IMG/VR virus record: IMGVR_UViG_3300032272_000007
Location: 1 to 64,000 of that record
DNA: 64,000 nucleotides
Reading direction: 5' to 3' (one strand)
Source: a virus
Taxonomy: Duplodnaviria > Caudoviricetes
A model generated the notes under the pieces. That model was not told the DNA's origin. It worked only from the letters and a program-made list of their open reading frames with translations, and ran no database searches. Position numbers and translations under genes: made by a program. Shown here one piece after another: positions 8,567 through 34,357 of this stretch; position 1 is the stretch's first letter, and every line of letters starts with the position of its first letter.

Positions 8567-9712
8567 TTAGTCTTTTTCATCATCAAAGACCTCATCAGCA
8601 CTTTCATTGATCTTGAAAATTTCTGGATTCAGATAGAATCTCTTATTGCCATTTTTGTCTGGCTTATTGGAGAACGCCTTAACATCCTCTTGGTCTGGCT
8701 GGCGGAGGTCTGCTTCATGGAAGTCGTACAAGCTCAACTTCAATAAAGATTGGACTCTTTGTATATTGTGCTTCCTTGGTTCAACGAACGCCTTAACCTC
8801 ATCGCTCAATTTCTTATAGATAGTAAGCAGCTTCCATTGGCGATCGGTAAGCTCCATAGCTTCAAACTCCTCTTTCTGGTAAATATTATCATTGACCCAA
8901 TCGGCTTCTTTCTCGGTACCAACAAGTTCAGGCTCAAGGGCCTGCAGTTTCCCCACTCCTTCCTGCTGAGGAGCGGTCATTTCATCTGGGTTATACAGAT
9001 AATAGAACTCGATGCCATACTCTTTTTTGATGGCTTTAGCAGCCTCAACGACCTTCCAACTAATAGCAGAAAAATATTGTATTTGCTCTTGTATCTTGAT
9101 GACAGTAGGATCGTTGGCGTACATGGTCACTACCTCGAGTTTGTACCCATCTATCCAAATAAGGATCCTCGCGTACTCCAATTCACTTATAAGTAAACCC
9201 ATGCACACCTGAGCGATGAATGAGGGGCTCACACTGTTTGGGTATCGGTTCGCCTCCATAGAGGAGGTATTTTTACATTCCAACGTCCCTTTTGCGACAA
9301 GGTGTCCGTCTTCATACTCGTACTCCTTCCCGTCTGGAGAGAAGAATAGCCATGGGTATTTATCGTTGACCTCATAGTATGAAGCACTACGGAGATGGTT
9401 TTTCTTTTTACCCGCCTCCATGTTATCATACATCACCATCTGGTCGGGGTTGGAGTGATCCCAGTATCGGTACTTTTCTATGATATTACCCTCCTCATGC
9501 TGGCCAGCCTTTGAGCGCACGTTTCCAGAAAACTCTGTAACATTCTCACCTATCTTTCCAAGGTGTACCTGGATGGGTGCGGTGTAGATATATTTGATAA
9601 GTCTCCCAATATACTGGGCTAGAACTCCGCCAATTTCAGAGGCTCCGTATCCGTTCTTTCGGAACTGATACCACTCCTTACTGTGCTGCTTTAGTTGTAC
9701 TCGTTTAATCAT
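8567..9712 (-). CDS. YqaJ/lambda-exonuclease-family recombination nuclease
   Basis: QHSKEWYQFRKNGYGASEIG, GQHEE, PWLFFSPDG, LECKNTS, AQV motifs. Confidence 0.88.
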   Translation of the reverse strand: MIKRVQLKQHSKEWYQFRKNGYGASEIGGVLAQYIGRLIKYIYTAPIQVHLGKIGENVTEFSGNVRSKAGQHEEGNIIEKYRYWDHSNPDQMVMYDNMEAGKKKNHLRSASYYEVNDKYPWLFFSPDGKEYEYEDGHLVAKGTLECKNTSSMEANRYPNSVSPSFIAQVCMGLLISELEYARILIWIDGYKLEVVTMYANDPTVIKIQEQIQYFSAISWKVVEAAKAIKKEYGIEFYYLYNPDEMTAPQQEGVGKLQALEPELVGTEKEADWVNDNIYQKEEFEAMELTDRQWKLLTIYKKLSDEVKAFVEPRKHNIQRVQSLLKLSLYDFHEADLRQPDQEDVKAFSNKPDKNGNKRFYLNPEIFKINESADEVFDDEKD

Positions 9713-9714
9713 CT

Positions 9715-9927
9715 TTAAATAATTTTCGTTTTGTCTGTAATAGCTCCCATTACTTGAAGCTGTGACCGTATACTCTGCCCAGTCGTACCATACATGATAA
9801 TGATACTTCCCTTCAATCCCATATCTTCAAGATTGATTTTGATGGGCTGATTATTTTTCATCCGCTTGATGTTCTCCTCAGTGAGACCAAACAGGAGGTC
9901 GTTGTTACTCAGTTTTGCTTTAATCAT
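9715..9927 (-). CDS. Hypothetical protein
   Basis: 70-aa ORF in the operon. Confidence 0.65.
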   Translation of the reverse strand: MIKAKLSNNDLLFGLTEENIKRMKNNQPIKINLEDMGLKGSIIIMYGTTGQSIRSQLQVMGAITDKTKII

Positions 9928-10207
9928 GGAATTTGCTTTTATGTTCGTTTTTGGTGCAAATAGTGTCTACATCTCGGATAACTTCACTTAATTTGAACAC
10001 TTCCTCCTTGAGCTGTTCTGGTGCTCTGGCTAACAGTTCTTTCTTCATATCATGCAAGTCCTTTATCTCCACATCATTAATATCAAAATCCATTTTCTCT
10101 AAAGCACGGGCTAACGCCGACCAACCAAATCGGCGACCTCCAGTCATGATTATTATTTTCTTTTTCATCCGTCGTAACTTATAGACATCATCCCTCTTCC
10201 CATTCAT
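9920..10207 (-). CDS. Hypothetical protein
   Basis: Overlap-coupled ORF. Confidence 0.55.
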   Translation of the reverse strand: MNGKRDDVYKLRRMKKKIIIMTGGRRFGWSALARALEKMDFDINDVEIKDLHDMKKELLARAPEQLKEEVFKLSEVIRDVDTICTKNEHKSKFHD

Positions 10208-10382
10208 CTGGTGAAAAATTGCTTCTTATGTAGTCCATCACATCCTCTTGTACTGGAGTTGGATCCCTATCTGACTTCTTCTGAGCAAACCAGAACCATT
10301 TCCAGAAGTCAAGAGGTACTTCATCCATTGATTTACCCCTGTGTGGCCCAAGTGGCATTTGATCGTAGCTAGATAGTATCAT
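10188..10382 (-). CDS. DUF3820-like small protein
   Basis: MPLGPHRGKSMDEVPLDFWKW resembles the MPFGKHKG...VP..YL.W motif. Confidence 0.6.
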   Translation of the reverse strand: MILSSYDQMPLGPHRGKSMDEVPLDFWKWFWFAQKKSDRDPTPVQEDVMDYIRSNFSPDEWEEG

Positions 10383-10701
10383 TATCTCCGCATTTTTTCT
10401 TGGCTATTCTAAATAATTCAAAAACTTTAGACCACTTCGGATCGTCCTCTACCTGGTATCGATAATTCTCCCAGATTCGATGTTCCTCCATGGTCATCAA
10501 CACTATGAACTCTTTTACCAGCTTCAAAGCTGGGCAGGATCCCTTACTCAGTACGTGACTGAATACAAAGAACATGCTCGGGTGAAAGTTGTAGTTCAAC
10601 GGCTCACCCGAGACAAAGCTAATATGTTCCCGTTCTTTCCAGATCTCAAGGAACACCTTGCCCTGATCATTAAGTCTTATCTCCTTCGGTGGAATTTGCA
10701 T
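10369..10701 (-). CDS. HNH-like nuclease
   Basis: FSHVLSKGSCPALKL...IVLMTMEEH resembles degenerate HNH proteins of Bacteroidota phages. Confidence 0.5.
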   Translation of the reverse strand: MQIPPKEIRLNDQGKVFLEIWKEREHISFVSGEPLNYNFHPSMFFVFSHVLSKGSCPALKLVKEFIVLMTMEEHRIWENYRYQVEDDPKWSKVFELFRIAKKKCGDNDTI

Positions 10702-11620
10702 CTACTTCAAATACGGATCCAGCCCCAGCTGCGACATTCTGATTACTCTGGTCCAACTCCTTTACCTTCTTTTCCTCGGCGGTCTCCACCGCATCAATAT
10801 CCAAAGTCATTTGCTTCTCATCCAGATTGGCCAGGATGGTTTTTCCAACCTCTTCTTTATCTTGAGCATACACCCCTAGCTTGGATTCCTTGGTTTTAGG
10901 CAGTTTCTTGGCCAGCTGCTTGATCGTGGACTTCATCCACATCCACCCCATCGGATCGTTTACTACTTTCCATGCTTTACCTCCGCCCGACCCACCGTTG
11001 GATTTAGCTTCAATGGCTGCAATCTCAGAGGCATTCATGTAAACCCACGTTGGAAATTGTTTGTTTTTCAGCCATGCTATGGCATAAGCTCCCACCCTTT
11101 TGGATCCAGTATGATCCTTCGCTGGTATGTGGATTAGGTTGGGGTTAGCGCCCTTCACCTCGCTGAACTCATCAGCTTCATAGACAATTTGGCAATCGAT
11201 TTGCTCTATTTCTGGGTGCCTACCAAACAACTCAATCCATCCTTGATACCCAATCTGAAACTGAGCCATCTTAACCCAGGTGTTATCGACTTTCGACTTA
11301 TACCCAATGATCCAAGAAAGACCAAACGGAGTGTTGGGTGTGAGACCAAGGGTGGCAGAGACAAGGAATGCACCAAATAATGATCTAACCTCACACTCCA
11401 ATAGTGCAGGATCATTCTTGATTCCAGTAATCACCTCCCCTATAAACTCTTTCGCTGCAATTCCCTTTGATTCCAAAAGCTGGGATAGTTGATCTTCATA
11501 CTTCCACATGGTGGCTTCAAAGATTTTTACTGCCACATCTTTGTCACCTCCTGGTTGTAGAAGGGAGCCCTCTAATTTCGTGACTGCTACTACTGGTTTT
11601 TTCTTCTCTGTTTCAGACAT
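10670..11620 (-). CDS. recT: RecT-family single-strand annealing recombinase
   Basis: GLTPNTPFG, AQFQIGYQGWIEL, VYEADEF, GAYAIA, MWMKSTIKQLAKKLP. Confidence 0.92.
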   Translation of the reverse strand: MSETEKKKPVVAVTKLEGSLLQPGGDKDVAVKIFEATMWKYEDQLSQLLESKGIAAKEFIGEVITGIKNDPALLECEVRSLFGAFLVSATLGLTPNTPFGLSWIIGYKSKVDNTWVKMAQFQIGYQGWIELFGRHPEIEQIDCQIVYEADEFSEVKGANPNLIHIPAKDHTGSKRVGAYAIAWLKNKQFPTWVYMNASEIAAIEAKSNGGSGGGKAWKVVNDPMGWMWMKSTIKQLAKKLPKTKESKLGVYAQDKEEVGKTILANLDEKQMTLDIDAVETAEEKKVKELDQSNQNVAAGAGSVFEVDANSTEGDKT

Positions 11621-11864: not shown

Positions 11865-12475
11865 GTGCTAATTTTTAGTTTACTAATTTGATTCAAAACT
11901 ATATTCTTGTGGTATAATATCTCCTGAGCAGAGGGCTTTAAATACAATTCATCTGATTCAAACGGAATCCCAAATAATTTACTGTGATCGCTTCTACGAC
12001 CTAGCTCCTCTACAATCCAAATGGATCCAGCAGAGCAGCTTACAGTATGAATATCACTGTCACTCAGCTCCACTATTCCACCAATTGGCAAGACGTAATC
12101 GCTACAATTAATATATGTGTCACACACATATTCAAGGCCTTTTCCCTCTTCCAGTATTGAATAATAGTCGTATTCTGGCAGTAACACATTGCCTTGAAGT
12201 GGGGGGTACATCCTAGTGGCCATGTGATGATTGATAACACCACCAAGTGGTGTTAATCGTATTGGATACTTATGGTCATGAAGTTGAATATCAAATGGTT
12301 TTATCTCATTTGCTGAGATAAAAACTCTAATGAATTCTCCAGATTCTTCACCGACTACAATAAGAGAAAATAGCCCCTTGGCGTGGCAATTTTTAAGACT
12401 CCTCGCCAAACAGTCTCTATTTGGGGATTTAAGTTTGTTGGATACACAATCTAGGATGTCTTTTAGCTTACTCAT
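11861..12475 (-). CDS. Putative cupin-fold metalloprotein
   Basis: LHDH...IHTV His arrangement resembles cupin/dioxygenase metal sites; ATGA-coupled to the ACP. Confidence 0.45.
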   Translation of the reverse strand: MSKLKDILDCVSNKLKSPNRDCLARSLKNCHAKGLFSLIVVGEESGEFIRVFISANEIKPFDIQLHDHKYPIRLTPLGGVINHHMATRMYPPLQGNVLLPEYDYYSILEEGKGLEYVCDTYINCSDYVLPIGGIVELSDSDIHTVSCSAGSIWIVEELGRRSDHSKLFGIPFESDELYLKPSAQEILYHKNIVLNQISKLKIST

Positions 12476-13644
12476 GATGTTTGAAGTTTGATAATTTGAT
12501 TCTTTTCAGCCACTAACCGCTCGTTTGAGACGTGGCCATAGTATTTTTCAGTAGTGCTAACGGATTCATGACCAAGGAATTGGGACACAGCTGTTAGACT
12601 GTGCCCCCTTTCCAGCATTAACACAGCAAAACTGTGACGCAGGACATGAGGAGTCACCTTTCGGCCCACCAACTCACTAAGTGGTCCTTTACAGAAGGCG
12701 CTGAACCTAGCATATTCAGCCTCATGTTTGCTCACAATAATCTTCCCGTCTGGCTCGAGGAAATTTCCTACCGGTAACCAGTTATTGAATGTCTTCTTGA
12801 AATCCGCCGCTAAAATCAACTCAATGATTCTATTCAATTCAGGGTATACTATTACCCTCGCCTGTACCTGAGATTTATGCCTGTTGTACACTAGGAACTT
12901 GTTACCCTCCAGATCTATGGTAAACTCGGGCTCTGTGCAGCAGTCGGCAAATGAATAGCCTGAGTAGGCTAAGAATAGGGATAGCAGGCCGTAGTGCTCA
13001 TCGGCGTACTCCCAGAGCTTGGTAATTACTTTTGGATTGATAAATTCCATAATGTTCGATTTCTTCTTTACCTGGTAGATCTTCTTTGCTTTGAATGGGT
13101 TGAATCTAATACTGTCAGGCCACTCATCCAAAGGAAAATCTTCAATGACCGTTTCCACTACCATTTTGATGAAGTTGATGTAAATGGAAATAGTATCGTT
13201 GGCATATCCTGATCTATTCAGCCATCCACGGTAACCCTTAGCTAATGATGTCGACAACATGGCCAGAGGAATGTCTTCCTGCGCGCCTAGCCCACTCAAA
13301 TACCTTTGAAAGGCACTCTGACAGTGGCGATATGTGGTCTTGGTATGATTAGACAGTCCTTTCAGTTCATCGGTTGTTCTCACGTAGTATTCACAGGCCT
13401 GGGAGACCGTGTATGGTGCGCCCGTCTTAATAGAGGAGGATTTCATGAGTGAGAATGCCAACTCTGGTGATGATGGAGACCCTGTTTTAATGATCTCCTC
13501 CAGCTTGCGGGTATAGTCCTTAATTTCTTGGCTCCTCCTCCAGTCTCTTTTCTTAACTATTCCAGTGGACTTATCCTTGGTGGATCCGCAGATGGTTAGT
13601 CTGCAGTAGATGTATTTCTCACGTCTGATGAAGAAGGTGATCAT
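12472..13644 (-). CDS. Tyrosine recombinase/integrase, Bacteroidota (IntDOT-like) type
   Basis: TPHVLRHSFA, FLGHESVSTTEKYY; first catalytic Arg replaced (SGYSFAD) with RHK downstream; N-terminal arm/SAM-like domains. Confidence 0.92.
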   Translation of the reverse strand: MITFFIRREKYIYCRLTICGSTKDKSTGIVKKRDWRRSQEIKDYTRKLEEIIKTGSPSSPELAFSLMKSSSIKTGAPYTVSQACEYYVRTTDELKGLSNHTKTTYRHCQSAFQRYLSGLGAQEDIPLAMLSTSLAKGYRGWLNRSGYANDTISIYINFIKMVVETVIEDFPLDEWPDSIRFNPFKAKKIYQVKKKSNIMEFINPKVITKLWEYADEHYGLLSLFLAYSGYSFADCCTEPEFTIDLEGNKFLVYNRHKSQVQARVIVYPELNRIIELILAADFKKTFNNWLPVGNFLEPDGKIIVSKHEAEYARFSAFCKGPLSELVGRKVTPHVLRHSFAVLMLERGHSLTAVSQFLGHESVSTTEKYYGHVSNERLVAEKNQIIKLQTS

Positions 13645-15312: not shown

Positions 15313-17103
15313 TTATGCTGCTTTTTTAACATTCATAATCTCTTTCATCTTATCCATTCTGCAGGCCACCATCGCTTTCACCAGCTTAGGAGGCACCGAG
15401 TTACCAATGAATCGCTTCTGGTCCGTCTGTGTGCCTCTGAGCTTGTACCTTGAGCCGAATCCTTGGATGTTGAGCAGTTCAGGAACTCGTAACATCCTCA
15501 TCTTAACATCAGACAGCCCATGAAGAGCCATAAACAACTTGATCTTCTTGGTGTACTCGGAGTCATCTTCGTAGATGATGATGCCATATCCTTCGATAGA
15601 TGGCTCCGCCTCTACCAGAGATGGGGGAGCTTTGTCCATTCGGGCGATCAGCGTGAAGCACGGCTTATCCGCCTCGTTCCCCTTGCTTTTGTATTGAGGG
15701 TTGTACAGGAAGCACTTAGAATCTGAACTAAGTTGTTGCTTGTCTATAAATACGATAGACAGCCTGTCTTTTGTTGTCAATGTGTCGGCAGGCCTCTCTA
15801 TGTCGTGAGTTATCCCAGTACCATAGTACTTGCTTAAAAACACCACCGCATGGTGATCCTTGGTTGTGATAGCTCCAGTGGGATCTTCAATAGACTGGCT
15901 TTGATGGCCACCTGAGAAGTACTTGGATAGGAATACTATTGAATGATGATCCTTGGTCATCAGTGTGCCTATCGTCTTATCTAACTCATGTACTCCACCA
16001 TTGGAGTAATGCTCCATTAATAATTCCACCTGAGCCAGAGCTCCGCCACCAAATGAGGTAATTGATCCTAAAGGCTCATCAGTTCCTTTGACCTTACCGT
16101 TCGGTCGTCCAGAAAAGTACTTCATGATAAACTCAGGCTGAACAATAGCTAATCTATTCTGAGTGGTTATGGTTGGAGCTGCTCCGTCGAGGTCAACGGG
16201 ATTACTAACTCCTCCTCTTGTGTTGGAAAGATACTTGGAAATGAACTCGGGCTCTTTACCCTCACCTACATGCTTGATCAATCCAACGTACAGGCGCTCT
16301 AATGTGTTCTCGCTAAGATCTTTCTTCCTTCCAAATATGCTACGCCCCTTGTCTTCAAGGTTCAATGCTGGACGCACAGCCAACCACTTGCGTACCTTCT
16401 TACCAAACAGCCCGCCATTAGACTTAGATGGATCTTTGGCGTGGGTGGCCTCTGGCCAGGTATATGGTAGATATGGTTTCTTGAACTGCCCAAAGTATCG
16501 GACACGGCTAGTCCGTGCACCAAAATCAGCAGCGTTAAATATTCGATGATCATAGTCATATCCATAGTCATCACAGATGTGCTGCAGCCATCTCCTGTAA
16601 TCTCTACCATTCTTCTTAGACTCTGGGATCCAGTGGTACTCGTTGTTCTGTCTGAACTTGAGATCTGATCTGTCGACATGAGATTTCTCGCAAGCAATAC
16701 GGAGAGGTCCCCAGCTCATGAACTCTACTACATTTTCAATGTCAATGTAATCTGGATCAATGGCAGCTATGTACCTGTACAGATGTTCGGCCAACGTTCG
16801 GCTATCAGCGTCCCGGCTCTCGCCTCCCTTAGCTTTGCTGAAATGTGTGCACTCCAGGGATGCCCATAGGCAGATGATGGCATTTGGATCGTTCGCCCGT
16901 ATGTTACGCACCAACCGAGCAAGCTGTTCAACATTGAACGTCTTAATGTCTTCGGTGAAGTGGAGGACATTCTTGTGATTGTCGTAGTGGCTCTTGATTG
17001 CAATAGGATCGTGGTTAATGCAGGCTATCACTTTGCCGCCAGCTCTGGCTATGCCAGTGGTTACGCCGCCAGCCCCGCAAAATAGGTCAATGTAGTAGAT
17101 CAT
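15313..17103 (-). CDS. DNA (cytosine-5)-methyltransferase with tandem variable-region repeats
   Basis: IDLFCGAGG, WASLECTHFS, IENV, RTSRVRYF, IGNSVPP; about 6 internal 'P.gTiTTKD' repeats. Confidence 0.95.
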   Translation of the reverse strand: MIYYIDLFCGAGGVTTGIARAGGKVIACINHDPIAIKSHYDNHKNVLHFTEDIKTFNVEQLARLVRNIRANDPNAIICLWASLECTHFSKAKGGESRDADSRTLAEHLYRYIAAIDPDYIDIENVVEFMSWGPLRIACEKSHVDRSDLKFRQNNEYHWIPESKKNGRDYRRWLQHICDDYGYDYDHRIFNAADFGARTSRVRYFGQFKKPYLPYTWPEATHAKDPSKSNGGLFGKKVRKWLAVRPALNLEDKGRSIFGRKKDLSENTLERLYVGLIKHVGEGKEPEFISKYLSNTRGGVSNPVDLDGAAPTITTQNRLAIVQPEFIMKYFSGRPNGKVKGTDEPLGSITSFGGGALAQVELLMEHYSNGGVHELDKTIGTLMTKDHHSIVFLSKYFSGGHQSQSIEDPTGAITTKDHHAVVFLSKYYGTGITHDIERPADTLTTKDRLSIVFIDKQQLSSDSKCFLYNPQYKSKGNEADKPCFTLIARMDKAPPSLVEAEPSIEGYGIIIYEDDSEYTKKIKLFMALHGLSDVKMRMLRVPELLNIQGFGSRYKLRGTQTDQKRFIGNSVPPKLVKAMVACRMDKMKEIMNVKKAA

Positions 17104-27039: not shown

Positions 27040-27399
27040 CTATTTCTGGTATGTTCCTTCTACATCTCGGCTTTTCCGATCAATCTGGCGCTGCAGTAGC
27101 CATTGTTGCGCCTCCTGGAGCTTAGTGATCACCAATGCACCTTCACGGCTAGGCACTAGTCCGTTTTTGTATTGAAGGTCATGGATCATTACAGCAAGTA
27201 GGTGCTCGTGTAGCGTTCCTTCACGTTTTTCTACCTCCTCCTCATTTACTTTGGATCCACGGACGAAATTTAGCCGTTGTTGCGCCGCTGGATCTTCCAC
27301 ATATTCAAGGCCTTTTCCATCCACTACTCTGTAGACTGGAAGTAAGTAAGACGTTCCTTCTTCGAGAATTTCGAAGTCATTTTTCAAATCGATTTCCAT
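27040..27399 (-). CDS. tad1: Tad1-family anti-Thoeris/anti-CBASS sponge homolog
   Basis: F.RG...G.....LL...L...SRE.A...T...EA..W...R..DR..R.V.GT pattern matches the Tad1 C-terminal hairpin as recalled from memory. Confidence 0.8.
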   Translation of the reverse strand: MEIDLKNDFEILEEGTSYLLPVYRVVDGKGLEYVEDPAAQQRLNFVRGSKVNEEEVEKREGTLHEHLLAVMIHDLQYKNGLVPSREGALVITKLQEAQQWLLQRQIDRKSRDVEGTYQK

Positions 27400-28527: not shown

Positions 28528-28549
28528 TTTTATAAATTTAGAGTGTTAG

Positions 28550-28622
28550 AGACGATAACAGGGCTCGAACCTGTGATCAATGTTTTGCAGACATTCGCCT
28601 TGACCAACTTGGCTATATCGTC
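28550..28622 (-). tRNA. tRNA-Cys(GCA)
   Basis: GACGATA/TATCGTC acceptor stem, AATGT-CTGCAAA-ACATT anticodon arm, TTCGA T loop. Confidence 0.93.
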
Positions 28623-28665: not shown

Positions 28666-29331
28666 CTAATCAGCAGAAAGTGATTTCACTACAGCTATGA
28701 ATAGATCATCTTTGTAGCGTTGTGATTCAGGGAGATCGGCGTAAGGAACGATGCACGGGTGCAATTTCTTCTCAGGATCTTTCTCCTCACCGTATTTCCA
28801 ACCTTCATCTACCTTATCCTTCATCCAGTTGTTGTGAAGTGAATCAGGCCCAGCTTTTGGGTTCTCCAAACGGAAAATTACACCCTTAACAGCGCTCTCT
28901 TTTTGCCAATCTGGTGCCTTTTCCCAAGTTAGCTGAGAATTGTCACCGATCGATTGGCAATAAGTTCTGTTGACTTCGTGGCAGGTTTCGGCGATCTTAG
29001 CAATGAAAGCGGCTTTTTTAGCCGCCAGGTGTTCTTTATCATCAGCTTTGCCCTTCTTTTCATCTTTATCGGCTGTAACTTTCGTATTACCAGCATCAAA
29101 AACATCTCCAGGAGACCATGACTGGTAACCATCTTCATAAACCACAAAGTATCCTCCAGCTATTGGATTATGCTTTTTGACATATAAATGAGAAACTGCG
29201 AACTTTTTACCCTTTGAGGGAGTGATAATTGCAGAACCGCCGGGTTTTAGCTTAACGGATTTGATTTTACAAGCACGAACCACCTTGTGGCTTCTGTACT
29301 CCTGTAATTTTGAAACATCTAATGGATCCAT
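28666..29331 (-). CDS. Two-domain protein: N-terminal YEDGYxSWSP (Tad2-like) domain plus C-terminal RyR domain
   Basis: GGYFVVYEDGYQSWSPGDVF; AETCHEVN...HNNWMKDKVDEGWKYG.EKDPEKKLHPCIVPYADLPESQRYKD. Confidence 0.8.
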   Translation of the reverse strand: MDPLDVSKLQEYRSHKVVRACKIKSVKLKPGGSAIITPSKGKKFAVSHLYVKKHNPIAGGYFVVYEDGYQSWSPGDVFDAGNTKVTADKDEKKGKADDKEHLAAKKAAFIAKIAETCHEVNRTYCQSIGDNSQLTWEKAPDWQKESAVKGVIFRLENPKAGPDSLHNNWMKDKVDEGWKYGEEKDPEKKLHPCIVPYADLPESQRYKDDLFIAVVKSLSAD

Positions 29332-29481
29332 ATAATTTTAATTTTTGATTAATTCTTTGCAAGGTAAATTCTTTTTTATTTCCAGCTCCTTCTGCCCCAC
29401 TGGCCATATTTTGCAGATACACTCCCTTTTAGGGTCTCTCTTGCATAGTGGGGCGTGTGGGCAGAAAAACTTTACCATAAC

Positions 29482-29497
29482 TGTTTCACGTGAAACA
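29482..29497. promoter_or_regulatory. parS: Canonical parS centromere site TGTTTCACGTGAAACA
   Basis: Perfect 16-bp palindrome matching the bacterial parS consensus, occupying a 21-nt intergenic gap. Confidence 0.85.
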
Positions 29498-29499
29498 CT

Positions 29500-29724
29500 T
29501 TACACTTTCTGAGGACCATGTGCCATACTACCATCTAATCTACTGAATGGCTGATTCTCCTTTATCGGAGGTAAGGACATACACTTACGAAGCACATTCA
29601 TTCCCTCCCTGATTTCTATCTCGTTCTTTTTTAGCTTCTTACGCATATAAGGGGTGGTCTGCACCCGTATTTCATACTGAACTAGGCTTAATTTCTCTTC
29701 AAGAATTTCAATTGCTGCTTTCAT
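29500..29724 (-). CDS. Hypothetical protein (MKAAIEILEEK...)
   Basis: ATG downstream of the leftward promoter. Confidence 0.65.
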   Translation of the reverse strand: MKAAIEILEEKLSLVQYEIRVQTTPYMRKKLKKNEIEIREGMNVLRKCMSLPPIKENQPFSRLDGSMAHGPQKV

Positions 29725-29745
29725 AAGGACTGAATCATTTAAAAT

Positions 29746-29777
29746 CAAATATAGTTTGATGATGTAGATAAAAACAA
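29746..29777 (-). promoter_or_regulatory. Leftward promoter TTG-N21-TATATTTG at the transcription divergence point
   Basis: Consensus elements; strand switch at about 29750-29809. Confidence 0.7.
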
Positions 29778-29808
29778 GAGATTGTCAAATTATTTTTAAT
29801 TTAGCTGC

Positions 29809-30630
29809 ATGAAGTTCATCTATGACTATGCGGTCGTTAAATTCGACAAACTAATACGGAATGAATCCGAAGTATCTGGAGCAAACGGACAAAAAATACT
29901 TCTAGCAATGGCTAAGGAGATGGAGCGCTATGTGCACAATGAGGGAACGGTCGTAAGCGTTCCAGATAAACTATCTGATAGTAAAGTCTTTGCTTTCAAC
30001 AGGATGGGGCCTCCTTTATACTATCGATCCAGCCCACAGGAGGTAACATGGCTTGATGTTGTTCCAATGTCCATTAAGGCTGGGGATAAGGTGTATTGCC
30101 ATCATAATGCAGTAATGAATGCCCTAAAAGACTCCGAAGATGTAATACTCAAAGAGGAGTACAACAAAGAGCGGAAGGAAACAACTGTTTGGATCAAAGT
30201 GCTAATTACTGATATTTTCTGTGCGGAGCGGAAAGGAAAACTTTTCCCTAACGCTACTTGGACATTGGTTAAGCCTGATATGGAAACATGGGAGGATATA
30301 TTAGTTCCCATTCCTGAAATAGACCCACTAACTGGTCAGCAGAAGGTGGAACTAACCAAAAAAATGGATAAAGCTGGGATCATGCAGACTACTCCGGTAC
30401 CAAAATGGTTACCAAAGGAGAAGTGGATACAAACGAAACAGGCACCAGAAGCAAAATTTCTTAGAGGGTTCATTGAAGCTATTGGAGATCCGTTGATTGG
30501 AGATATTAAAGACCTTGAAAAAGGAGATCACATCATTTTTAGAAATTTCGTTGATTTTGAGGTTAGCATTGGTGGTGTTAAATATTATTTGATGAAACAG
30601 ATGAATATTAGAGGGGTTATTGAAAAATAA
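29809..30630 (+). CDS. Tandem GroES-like co-chaperonin
   Basis: Two Cpn10-like units: GTVVSVP...IKAGDKVY and GFIEAIG...LEKGDHIIF...YYLMKQMNIRGVI. Confidence 0.75.
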   Translation: MKFIYDYAVVKFDKLIRNESEVSGANGQKILLAMAKEMERYVHNEGTVVSVPDKLSDSKVFAFNRMGPPLYYRSSPQEVTWLDVVPMSIKAGDKVYCHHNAVMNALKDSEDVILKEEYNKERKETTVWIKVLITDIFCAERKGKLFPNATWTLVKPDMETWEDILVPIPEIDPLTGQQKVELTKKMDKAGIMQTTPVPKWLPKEKWIQTKQAPEAKFLRGFIEAIGDPLIGDIKDLEKGDHIIFRNFVDFEVSIGGVKYYLMKQMNIRGVIEK

Positions 30631-30983: not shown

Positions 30984-31144
30984 TGTTTTTCTAATCCCCT
31001 TTGTATCCCCTCAGTATGGTCATACTAAGGGGATGTATATCCCCTTTGCATCCCCGCTTGTATGGTATTGATATACTATAACAATACACTATTAATACAA
31101 TATCTACTAGTAGCAGTAAGGAGAATCAAATTATATTTGTTTCT

Positions 31145-31429
31145 ATGGAAACAAATATAAAACCCAGATTCGATTGCGCTCTTGTTGAATTACTACCTGA
31201 TAAAGATCATTTCAGTAAAGATGCGGACATTATTAAACCAGACAATGCTAAAAACTCTGGTAAGATGCTTAGAGGTAAAGTTCTAAGATTTGGATCTAGC
31301 TGCGAGGGATTGACGGAAGGAATGATCGTTGGTTTCCGGAATGGAGCTGGAGAGAAAGACATCGATGCTGAAAATGCCAATTTAATGTTGATACGCGATA
31401 AAGACCTAATGATCACCTATGACGACTGA
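31145..31429 (+). CDS. groES: GroES (Cpn10)-like co-chaperonin
   Basis: IKPRFDCALVE...IIKPDNAK...GKVLRFG...GMIV.F...LMLIRDKDLM. Confidence 0.75.
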   Translation: METNIKPRFDCALVELLPDKDHFSKDADIIKPDNAKNSGKMLRGKVLRFGSSCEGLTEGMIVGFRNGAGEKDIDAENANLMLIRDKDLMITYDD

Positions 31430-32108
31430 AACCGAGGAGCGATTTAGTAAGCTCAGGTTTCCTGTGCATAAAATACCGCCTGAGAAAGATCTTACTCAGG
31501 CGGTACCTAATCTATTTGTGTACAATGAATTCAAGAAGTTCGCCCATGAGCATAAATCACTCATCATTCGATACATCTGCTTTTTGTATGATCCAGGATC
31601 TGACCTCATCACTGACTTTCAAGAAGACATGGAAGCCAGACGAAACGCTGCTGCAGTTGCGGCGGGAATAGAAAGAAATGGAGATAAGTGGCCTAAGTGG
31701 TTTGAACTATCCATCAACTTTGAAAAAGAGGAGGTTAAAAAAGTTTTAGTAGAAGAGGGTACTGACGATTCAAAACCCATATACAAAAACGAGAGGAAAA
31801 TTACTCGAGACAAGGATTTGATCATGATGATCCTACGTTTCATTAGAATTTTCCGAAATAGAATTTGGATTGAGATCTGCACCCTTGAGGTGGAATACGA
31901 TCGTATGACCAAACAGCGATGGGAAGGAGTTGGACTTAATGATCCACAGAAAATCAAGCAGGCGGCTGATTTATCTAATGTTTGTGATGGTCACCTGGTA
32001 AAGTTGAATTCCTTCTACAATGAATTTTTTGGAGACAAGGATCTTGAGGATAATGTTATTGAAATGATGACTCCTGAAAATTTAGATAGACTTAGAAAAA
32101 GCGGATAA
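31419..32108 (+). CDS. Probable terminase small subunit
   Basis: Coupled immediately upstream of TerL; helical. Confidence 0.5.
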   Translation: MTTETEERFSKLRFPVHKIPPEKDLTQAVPNLFVYNEFKKFAHEHKSLIIRYICFLYDPGSDLITDFQEDMEARRNAAAVAAGIERNGDKWPKWFELSINFEKEEVKKVLVEEGTDDSKPIYKNERKITRDKDLIMMILRFIRIFRNRIWIEICTLEVEYDRMTKQRWEGVGLNDPQKIKQAADLSNVCDGHLVKLNSFYNEFFGDKDLEDNVIEMMTPENLDRLRKSG

Positions 32109-34357
32109 TGTATCACGAGGTAGAGGGAGGAACAGAAATCACAATAAAACACGGATACAAGGTTTGGATTCCTCCAATGCCAGAAAAAAGCGCTATTCAT
32201 GGCTTTGAAAAACTAAAGAAAGATCAGAAGTGGGAAAGAACCCTTCTTCCAGACTATTGGGAAGATCGACGCGAAGAGGAAATCTTCAAACGCGAAGAGT
32301 GGGAGAAAATGGTTAAAGATGGGAAGATTGATAGGAAAAAATCTCATCCGTTTGTAGATCCAGTGCTTGAAAAATTCAGAAGACAAGAATTTGCTCGACG
32401 CGAAGAGGGATTTTGGTTTTATAACAATGGGGAACCGACCTATATTAATGGATCTCACTACTATTACCTGAACTGGACCAGGTGGGATCACGTGGAAAAC
32501 GATGGTTACCCTATTTTCTATGAGAATCAAATACATCGATTTTACTTCCGAGAACTTTGTGAGACAGATCCAAGATCGCTAGGCTACCTCATTATCGGAC
32601 CAAGGGGATTTGGTAAGTCCTGTGAGGAAATTTCGTGCATCATAAACCGCATCACAAAACCACCACGTAAAAAGTGGGCTGCAATCCAGTCAATGACTGA
32701 AAAGGACGCACAGGATGTACTTTTCATTAAAAAGGTTGTTCCTATGTACAACGACCTTCCAGATTTCTTCAAGCCCATCAATGATCATGGAACCAGTCCA
32801 GTATCATCACTTTCATTCAAAAGAGACCGAAAAACAGGAAAAGCTGCCCATAAAGTAAAATTTGATCCAGAAGATGAACTAAACAATCTTCTATCATGGG
32901 TGGGATCCAAGGAAAAAGCACTAGATGGTGAAACCCTCCAGGACATCATGCAGGATGAAGTTGGAAAAACAGAGGATCACATCGCAAATGTGTCAGTACG
33001 TACTGGGGTCAACCGAAATAGTGTTTTCAGAAATAATAGAAAAATTGGTATTCAGCGATGTACTACCACTATTGAGGATATGGACTCTGGTGGAGCTGCA
33101 TGTTTAGAGCTCTGGGATGACTCAGATCCAGATAAGCGCACCGCCAACGGGCAAACCCTCTCTAGTTTGTATAAATGGCTAGTTATAACTCAGGAGTGCG
33201 ACCGTAGGTTTGCTGATGATTATGGTCGGATTGGTCCAGACCGGGAGATACCAATTGAAGATATTGACGATCCAGACAGGAATGGAGTAGGAAAACTAAG
33301 TGGTAAAAAAATGTCCCTTCTTGAATACCACGGGAATGAGCGAAAAGCTAGAATGCACGACCCTATCAAATTGGCTAATTGGGTTCGTAAGCATATCATG
33401 AGTGAGCAAGACATTCGAATTAAGAAAGGAGGAGCAAGTACATTCAACCAGATGATTATTAATAATAATCGAACGGAATTAATGCTTCTTAAAACCCCTC
33501 TTTGGGTACGAGGTAACTTCCATTTCGAAGGTAAGCCGTTCAAAAGCAAGGTTTATTTTGAAAGAGATGATCATGAAGGAAGGTGGCAAGTTAGTTTACT
33601 ATTGGATCCAAATGACTCCAATCGGTTTCATTACGAGGAAGGTCTTAATGGAAAAAAATTATTGGTACCGAATAACTCTTTAAAATTTGGAGCTGGAGTC
33701 GATCCTATCAAAGATGTTAAGACTAAAAATCCTCGTGCATCAAAGATGTCCGCCCACTTCAAGTACAAGTATGATGACAAAATTGATAGAGGAAAACCAG
33801 TAGAAGAATGGGAGTCATGTAGATATGTTGCTAGGTATCACTTCCGTCCAGATGATTCAAAGGATGCTTTTATGGACGTAGCAATGGGGATGTTGTATTT
33901 TGGATGTTGGGCAAATATTGAGGGAAACATTGGAGAGTTTACGGGATGGCTAAAGTCTAATGGAATGGATAAATTCATTATGACGGCGGCAGATTTTGAT
34001 GAGCCTTCCTTTGAGTCAAAAAAGAGCCTAGAGAACAGCTTGGTATCCACCGTAGAGGTGCAACAGGCGTATATTAGTAAAATTCGTACCTTTATCGCAA
34101 GACATCTCCACAGGAGAAATGCTTTACCTTTTATTGAAACGAATGACCAATTGTTGGATTTTGAGATTGAAAAGGTAACTTTCTTTGATGATGTCGTAAG
34201 TTTGGGGTTCTGTGAACTTGGTGACGATGCTATCGTTATTGAACAAGAAGTTCCCGAAACAGAATCAAGTGATTGGTTTCCGGAGTTTGATATTAGCGAA
34301 GACACCCCCGTACTGGTAGAAAATTACGATGATGAATTTTGGAAAGATTTAATGTAA
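32108..34357 (+). CDS. terL: Terminase large subunit
   Basis: GPRGFGKS Walker A, MQDEVGK Walker B, GAGVDPI nuclease motif; crAss-like N-terminus. Confidence 0.92.
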   Translation: MYHEVEGGTEITIKHGYKVWIPPMPEKSAIHGFEKLKKDQKWERTLLPDYWEDRREEEIFKREEWEKMVKDGKIDRKKSHPFVDPVLEKFRRQEFARREEGFWFYNNGEPTYINGSHYYYLNWTRWDHVENDGYPIFYENQIHRFYFRELCETDPRSLGYLIIGPRGFGKSCEEISCIINRITKPPRKKWAAIQSMTEKDAQDVLFIKKVVPMYNDLPDFFKPINDHGTSPVSSLSFKRDRKTGKAAHKVKFDPEDELNNLLSWVGSKEKALDGETLQDIMQDEVGKTEDHIANVSVRTGVNRNSVFRNNRKIGIQRCTTTIEDMDSGGAACLELWDDSDPDKRTANGQTLSSLYKWLVITQECDRRFADDYGRIGPDREIPIEDIDDPDRNGVGKLSGKKMSLLEYHGNERKARMHDPIKLANWVRKHIMSEQDIRIKKGGASTFNQMIINNNRTELMLLKTPLWVRGNFHFEGKPFKSKVYFERDDHEGRWQVSLLLDPNDSNRFHYEEGLNGKKLLVPNNSLKFGAGVDPIKDVKTKNPRASKMSAHFKYKYDDKIDRGKPVEEWESCRYVARYHFRPDDSKDAFMDVAMGMLYFGCWANIEGNIGEFTGWLKSNGMDKFIMTAADFDEPSFESKKSLENSLVSTVEVQQAYISKIRTFIARHLHRRNALPFIETNDQLLDFEIEKVTFFDDVVSLGFCELGDDAIVIEQEVPETESSDWFPEFDISEDTPVLVENYDDEFWKDLM

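Follow-up and report, generated by a model that had tools for sequence, protein, structure and literature searches.

This work describes a phage genome that carries one perfect copy of a chromosomal-type parS site and no detectable ParA or ParB of its own. ParB and parS form a near-universal bacterial system for chromosome segregation and SMC loading. The phage site, the 16-bp palindrome TGTTTCACGTGAAACA, lies at positions 29482-29497 of a 64,000-nt window (the whole stretch of DNA that was analyzed), which belongs to a 74,756-base IMG/VR virus record that is 93% complete according to CheckV. We regard it as an even call that selection has kept this parS as a site where host ParB loads, with segregation of unintegrated phage DNA as its likeliest use. 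The two halves of this reading differ in strength: binding of host ParB to the phage parS is quite likely, while a downstream role in the inheritance or positioning of unintegrated phage DNA, as weighed in our analysis, is an even proposition at best.

The parS site and its genomic surroundings

The site matches the parS consensus tGTTNCACGTGNAACa perfectly, and its description in the initial annotation as a canonical chromosomal parS is therefore correct. It is the sole match at ≤3 mismatches in the 64-kb window and at ≤2 mismatches in the whole 74,756-base record, which answers the question raised there of whether further copies exist. At the base composition of the window, a perfect parS is expected 2.7e-5 times per 74.7 kb, the same order as the earlier estimate of roughly 1 in 70,000. 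CACGTG is otherwise not unusual in the window, with 3 copies versus 4.5 expected. A second 16-bp near-palindrome at 31138-31153, which has the parS arms (TGTTTC...GAAACA) around another set of four central bases, overlaps the ATG of the 94-aa GroES-like gene described below; having lost the CACGTG core, it is unlikely to be a site for ParB.

On the minus strand, parS occupies the whole of the 21-nt gap (29479-29499) between the stop codon of an 82-aa ORF and the ATG of a 46-aa ORF, exactly as first described. The 46-aa ORF had been taken to head the leftward operon; that place instead belongs to the ORF on the other side of the site (29500..29748, minus strand), which reads 82 aa from a TTG codon, although the ATG at 29724 (74 aa) is the likelier start. 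As a consequence, parS is internal to the transcription unit. This first ORF has no Pfam or PHROG match and shows weak homology to the first leftward gene in a relative, L169. The Cys-rich 46-aa ORF (29338..29478, minus strand) starts 3 nt after parS, lacks homologues in relatives, and is of doubtful status as a gene. The next real gene downstream encodes a RyR-domain protein (28666..29331, minus strand; Pfam RyR PF02026, E 5.5e-13), and farther downstream lie a tRNA-Cys gene (28549-28622, minus strand) and a Tad1/Acb2-like gene (27040-27399, minus strand) whose match is weak (E 0.0034, below the Pfam cut-off). About 250 bp upstream of parS is a candidate −7 promoter box for the operon, TAnnTTTG at 29746..29753 (minus strand), which we take to be of Bacteroidota type by comparison with the Bacteroidetes promoter consensus.

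The operon is part of a leftward early/accessory block that is separated from a rightward packaging and structural block by a divergent intergenic region (29749..29808). The divergence point lies ∼250 to 310 bp from parS, in agreement with the ∼250 bp originally given. The rightward block opens with a 273-aa Cpn10-like gene (29809..30630, plus strand), which is conserved across the family, and continues with the GroES-like gene, a probable small terminase gene, the gene for the large terminase TerL (32108..34357, plus strand), which served as the family anchor, and a portal gene. TerL starts 2,626 bp downstream of the window parS.

Several features of this neighborhood deserve mention in their own right. 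The Cpn10/GroES-like genes form a pair just upstream of the terminase genes: the larger (29809-30630), whose product has a C-terminal Cpn10 domain, keeps the same position across most of the family, and the smaller (31145-31429, 94 aa) has BLAST matches in clade-A relatives only, with Pfam Cpn10-like genes in the same place in other clades. One relative also encodes Cpn60. The early region holds a candidate counter-defence/accessory set, consisting of the weak Tad1/Acb2-like gene (27040-27399), the RyR gene (28666-29331), a gene for a 596-aa C5 cytosine methylase (15313-17103), and a RecT/YqaJ recombination pair (8567-11620). The RyR-domain protein of the window phage is a fusion with a conserved phage N-terminal domain. 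This N-terminal domain is all that the window phage shares with L125, a 74.5-kb IMG/VR phage (the other window proteins had no match in the 12 kb fetched), and L125 has a core-type parS at 2682-2697 with two end or N-position changes.

Two other readings of the palindrome were considered and set aside. A reading as an RNA hairpin or terminator was rejected: the minus-strand fold around parS is no better than that of shuffled sequences (z = −0.03), and a T-run is absent downstream. For the sample searched, an origin from a captured piece of host DNA was rejected as well, as no match longer than ∼20 to 35 nt around parS was found among 401 Bacteroidota genomes. In one Bacteroidota genome (G413:C67:20662-20685), the window parS and 8 flanking bases are identical over 24 nt, a match that is borderline for chance, several hundred host sites having been searched.

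Recurrence and constraint in related phages

TerL homologues delimit a family of phage genomes of ∼70 to 80 kb. Six copies of the core GTTNCACGTGNAAC are present in 1.07 Mb of TerL-family loci together with the window; for comparison, 300 composition-matched palindromes gave a mean of 0.057 matches and a maximum of 2. This is an enrichment of ∼100-fold. The site is retained by selection and not by chance, as three further points developed below show: the site recurs in related phages, it keeps the pattern of degeneracy seen in hosts, and it is held inside coding sequence in relatives.

Recurrence is clearest in a sister clade that has 100% support on a quick TerL tree; parS is present in all five of its members (L178, L232, L233, L238, and L226). 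L178, a prophage in a Chryseolinea metagenome-assembled genome (MAG), has the perfect 16-mer; L233 differs only at position 16, L238 only at position 5, and L232 at both. A separate lineage, L234, has one parS that differs at positions 1, 5, and 12. In all, the seven phage sites vary at positions 1, 5, 12, and 16 only, where host sites vary as well, and the 12 specified core bases are identical in all seven even though the genomes are diverged. The records G000, G206, G207, G208, and G209 each contain exactly one core site (G208 being only a 12% fragment), and ParB_N is absent from all five of these parS-bearing records. In relatives, parS lies 1,984 to 2,607 bp upstream of the TerL start; for six of the seven site-bearing family genomes this distance is 2.0 to 2.6 kb and puts parS close to the early/late switch region, and in the five genomes whose locus includes the divergence point it is 0.25 to 1.4 kb from that point.

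Four members of the sister clade (L178, L232, L233, and L238) have parS inside a small signal-peptide ORF, 1,984 to 2,339 bp upstream of TerL; in this clade, the parS-bearing small ORF is the next or next-but-one after the Cpn10-like homologue. The reading phase of the site is identical in the four, where it encodes V-(S/P)-R-E-T. This secreted-protein ORF evolves fast, and its remainder is nearly unalignable: across 78 ungapped codons, invariant nucleotides average 0.44 per codon. The sole core substitution among the four in-ORF sites is T/C at position 5, which changes Ser to Pro in the protein and is tolerated by ParB sites. When 1.2-kb regions centered on parS were compared, the in-register site was the longest or joint-longest shared string in 6 of 10 pairs, and the CACGTG arm was among the top three shared strings in three further pairs; other strings common to these regions were 9- to 14-mers at unrelated offsets. 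These patterns indicate that the constraint on parS acts at the level of DNA and not of protein.

The position of the site is less fixed than its sequence. G209, the complete genome behind L226, has the homologous small ORF without parS; its sole parS is ∼11 kb from the divergence point, in an early-region ORF of 101 aa. The L234 site is ∼34 nt upstream of a secreted-protein gene, and the window site is intergenic, in the leftward operon, on the opposite side of the divergence point from the sister clade. In the family, parS thus changes its place in the genome and yet is kept. One site per genome at a changeable position points to a genome-level need and not to a local operator. As a separate observation, a gene of ∼56 to 60 aa lies directly upstream of the small signal-peptide ORF (L238:7304-7474 and L226:7568-7750). 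Pfam Hc1 (histone H1-like nucleoid protein) is recorded for the L238 copy only, so that in L238 a predicted phage nucleoid-protein gene adjoins the ORF that carries parS.

Not all members of the family have the site. L169 is the nearest relative with synteny to the window (TerL identity of 61%) and shares its RyR/Tad1 operon. At the place equivalent to that of parS, it has a gene of 114 aa and one of the MerR family, and no parS is present from ∼7 kb upstream to ∼12 kb downstream of its TerL start. No parS was found within ≤10 kb on either side of TerL in the clade-A relatives L169 and L172 to L175 (46 to 60% TerL identity), which may carry one farther out, and ∼19 family loci are without one in TerL flanks of ≤10 kb; the 71-kb record G210 also has none. 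Since the nearest assessable relatives have no site near TerL, the trait is dispensable and patchy. The conservation that the initial annotation proposed to check is present in part: the site recurs throughout the sister clade, but its exact position in the window is not kept in L169. In TerL, L168 is closest to the window phage (71% identity in the trimmed alignment used for the tree), and its contig of 5.4 kb stops short of the parS region. Searches of IMG/VR and JGI metagenomes with single proteins, the Cpn10-like protein and TerL, revealed no close relatives of the window phage. Several TerL genes of the family are ∼1,090 aa long, with intein/homing-endonuclease domains PF05203, PF05204, and PF14528 (for example, P0013, P0035, P0037, P0040, P0045, L234:2663-5923, and L235).

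Beyond the family, a perfect parS is present in at least 119 IMG/VR contigs, compared to 2 for the reversed control, and because of this excess the carriage of parS by phages is probably broad. The 119 perfect-parS loci fetched for comparison included no relatives of the window phage.

Lifestyle of the phage family and parS of its hosts

The whole 74.7-kb record gave no match to ParB_N, HTH_ParB, AAA_31, or CbiA. The initial annotation had seen no parAB in the window, and this extends to the full record; a phage-encoded ParA ATPase and ParB of the kind found in P1, N15, and mycobacteriophage parABS were not detected. Nor was an extrachromosomal prophage of the phage-plasmid type found. Members of the family are integrated in large chromosomal contigs of Chryseolinea (275 kb), Flavisolibacter (a 5.7-Mb chromosome), Terrimonas, and a Saprospiraceae genome, and all hosts of these integrated relatives are Bacteroidota. 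The window phage encodes a tyrosine integrase (12472..13644, minus strand), which indicates an integrating temperate lifestyle; tyrosine integrases are present in 5/5 family records tested, and G206, a parS-bearing relative, is a provirus by its IMG/VR class. From the integrated relatives, the integrases, and the provirus class, it follows that the family is temperate and integrating and has Bacteroidota hosts; the host of the window phage is probably also a member of this phylum. A phage-plasmid or carrier lifestyle had been proposed in part from an "att-less recombinase"; because the relatives are integrated prophages, this idea is neither needed nor supported.

In Bacteroidota, 164 of 201 genomes have at least one parS site at ≤1 mismatch, typically 1 to 3 sites, compared to 6 of 201 for the reversed control. 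The 37 genomes in which no site was found at this threshold may represent lineages that use another parS dialect or have no ParB. In the host family of prophage L178, ParB_N was found in 24/26 genomes (in ParB proteins of ∼300 aa) and the parS core in 25/26, nearly always at one locus with two sites 25 to 90 bp apart. Taken together, these genomes suggest that the likely host phylum uses exactly this parS with its own ParB.

The Chryseolinea MAG that holds L178 has the family-typical pair of sites on another contig than the prophage, whose own parS is one of three clear sites in this MAG. Two other near-sites, within an M48 peptidase gene and a TPR-protein gene and with no par genes nearby, are probably due to chance. 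DnaA is on a different contig from the prophage. ParB_N was not found in this MAG; given that the typical parS pair is present and that 24/26 relatives have ParB, its absence probably reflects an incomplete assembly. For two Chitinophagaceae genomes, those of Flavisolibacter (G002) and Terrimonas (G003), no parS-core match was found in the whole genome, and their prophages of the TerL family are likewise without parS. Absence from both hosts and prophages fits a matching of phage to host, with the small numbers kept in mind. The view of the site as host type, advanced in the initial annotation, therefore holds for the phylum and for the host family of L178 but does not extend to Flavisolibacter or Terrimonas.

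Possible use of the site by the phage and comparison with known systems

ParB binds parS by its helix-turn-helix domain, closes in a CTP-dependent manner into a clamp, and slides to flanking DNA; it also recruits SMC and stimulates ParA, and one parS suffices for the loading of ParB and SMC. If a Bacteroidota cell produces ParB, dimers of this host protein would recognize the phage palindrome, close into such CTP-dependent clamps, and slide onto the few kilobases that flank the site, a stretch that comprises the divergent control region and the packaging genes. By this spreading of ParB over flanking phage DNA, the phage DNA would bear a partition complex without encoding ParA or ParB. Unintegrated phage DNA—newly infecting DNA that has yet to integrate, excised DNA, or the DNA of a pseudolysogen—would then be tied to the ParA/SMC segregation machinery of the host, which would keep it positioned on the nucleoid and pass it to daughter cells. 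Because the family integrates, partition of free DNA would matter only transiently. In a lysogen, the phage parS would become an ectopic chromosomal parS.

Other readings of the same observations were weighed. Host ParB might act as a regulator, spreading over the divergent promoters and damping or timing the early accessory operon, the packaging block, or both, for instance to quiet the prophage. The location of six of the seven sites near the early/late switch, and of the window site downstream of the candidate leftward promoter, is in keeping with such a role, and silencing of neighboring genes by ParB/SopB/KorB-type proteins is established for P1, F, and RK2. We nevertheless judge it unlikely, since the only site in G209 is far into the early region, distant from the switch, and the window and sister-clade sites are on opposite sides of the divergence point; a position that is not strictly kept favors a genome-level over a local need. 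Moreover, to our knowledge, chromosomal ParB usually has little transcriptional effect. An action directed against the host, in which the parS of replicating phage titrates ParB or misloads SMC and so disturbs segregation or division to the benefit of the phage, also seems improbable. The relevant host family has one locus with about two sites, which even one site per phage copy would outnumber during replication, and an ectopic site in a lysogen, such as the prophage site among the three clear sites of the Chryseolinea MAG, could refold the chromosome. A single site per genome is, however, a weak sponge compared to multisite arrays, temperate phages gain little by harming the segregation of their lysogens, and the persistence of parS in integrated prophages suggests that it is tolerated and nontoxic.

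The two remaining readings give host ParB no part. If the palindrome were an operator for a phage-encoded DNA-binding protein, with a resemblance to parS only, a perfect palindrome within an operon near a control region would be readily understood, and the MerR-family gene at the corresponding place in the closest syntenic relative would offer a possible reader. That gene is missing from the window phage, however, and the relative that has it is without parS. Moreover, no window protein is common to the site-bearing genomes only, ParB_N and HTH_ParB are absent from the record, and the seven sites from diverged genomes keep all core bases and vary only where host parS varies; an operator of this kind is thus highly improbable. 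Chance occurrence, or neutral carriage with host DNA, would agree with the placement of the site in a variable, poorly conserved stretch and with its absence from the closest assessable relatives, and a scan of very many windows is bound to meet some chance 16-mers. The very low expectation per genome, the ∼100-fold enrichment in the family, the retention of the site within coding sequence in the sister clade, and the lack of host-like flanks beyond ∼20 to 35 nt among the 401 Bacteroidota genomes make this explanation hard to credit at all.

The preferred reading, loading of host ParB onto a selected phage site, has a precedent. As summarized in PMC2731898, which draws on Meijer et al. 2005, phi29 has five parS sites and uses host Spo0J for entry into the forespore. 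By the same account, the virulent Bacillus phages phi29 and Nf likewise have host-type parS without a phage ParA or ParB, and host Spo0J is the presumed or shown reader that couples phage DNA to host segregation (PMC2731898). The five sites of phi29 are spread over its genome, whereas here there is one per record (G000, G206, G207, and G209). Unlike those of phi29, the sites in the relatives studied here are within coding sequence and are carried into the host chromosome by prophages. The two kinds of phage are also far apart, phi29 (genome of ∼19 kb) being a small, protein-primed, virulent podophage of a spore-former and the present phage a ∼75-kb, integrase-bearing temperate phage of nonsporulating Bacteroidota. 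Bacteroidota are not known to form endospores, and the biological purpose must therefore differ from forespore trapping as in phi29.

Chromosomal complexes of parS with ParB (Spo0J) and CTP involve the identical 16-bp sequence with the same tolerated variation; the phage site differs in being on a virus, away from the chromosomal origin, and not beside parAB. Phage-plasmid partition cassettes, namely P1 parABS, N15 sopAB with dispersed centromeres, and mycobacteriophage parABS (PMC7157519), also place a centromere on a temperate phage, where it serves the inheritance of extrachromosomal phage DNA. These cassettes encode their own ParA and ParB, have element-specific repeated centromeres, and occur in phages that lack or bypass integration. 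In contrast, the window phage has neither ParA nor ParB, uses the host sequence, and belongs to an integrating family. A literature search on phage-borne or orphan parS, ParB hijacking, and SMC returned nothing on temperate, integrating, or Bacteroidota phages, and phi29 in sporulating Bacillus was the sole experimentally described case found of such use by a phage without its own ParB. The principle of a host-type parS on a ParB-less phage is thus already known from phi29 and Nf. The present phages differ in the single site, the nonsporulating phylum, the integrating lifestyle, the coding-embedded sites, and the movable position.

In sum, these temperate phages of Bacteroidota, a family unrelated to phi29, hold a single host parS that is under clear selection at the DNA level. 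If host ParB loads on it, the site would provide a cheap, gene-free route to phage inheritance or positioning, and lysogeny could alter chromosome architecture in hosts with a single parS locus. Genome annotation would also gain a simple 16-bp marker for matching phages to hosts, because the site on the phage is expected to follow the parS dialect of the host. Going further, we tentatively propose that a single host-type parS, movable in position, is retained by this integrating family as a "handle" for host ParB that serves the genome as a whole. In nonsporulating hosts it may partition phage genomes that are not integrated and so provide a ParAB-free carrier stage, and it would act as an ectopic ParB/SMC site in lysogens. 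If this proposal is true, the ectopic ParB/SMC loading site would reshape chromosome folding or prophage control; combined with the excess of perfect parS in viral contigs, which is at least 60-fold, it would make the hijacking of host ParB a widespread phage strategy that reaches beyond phi29.
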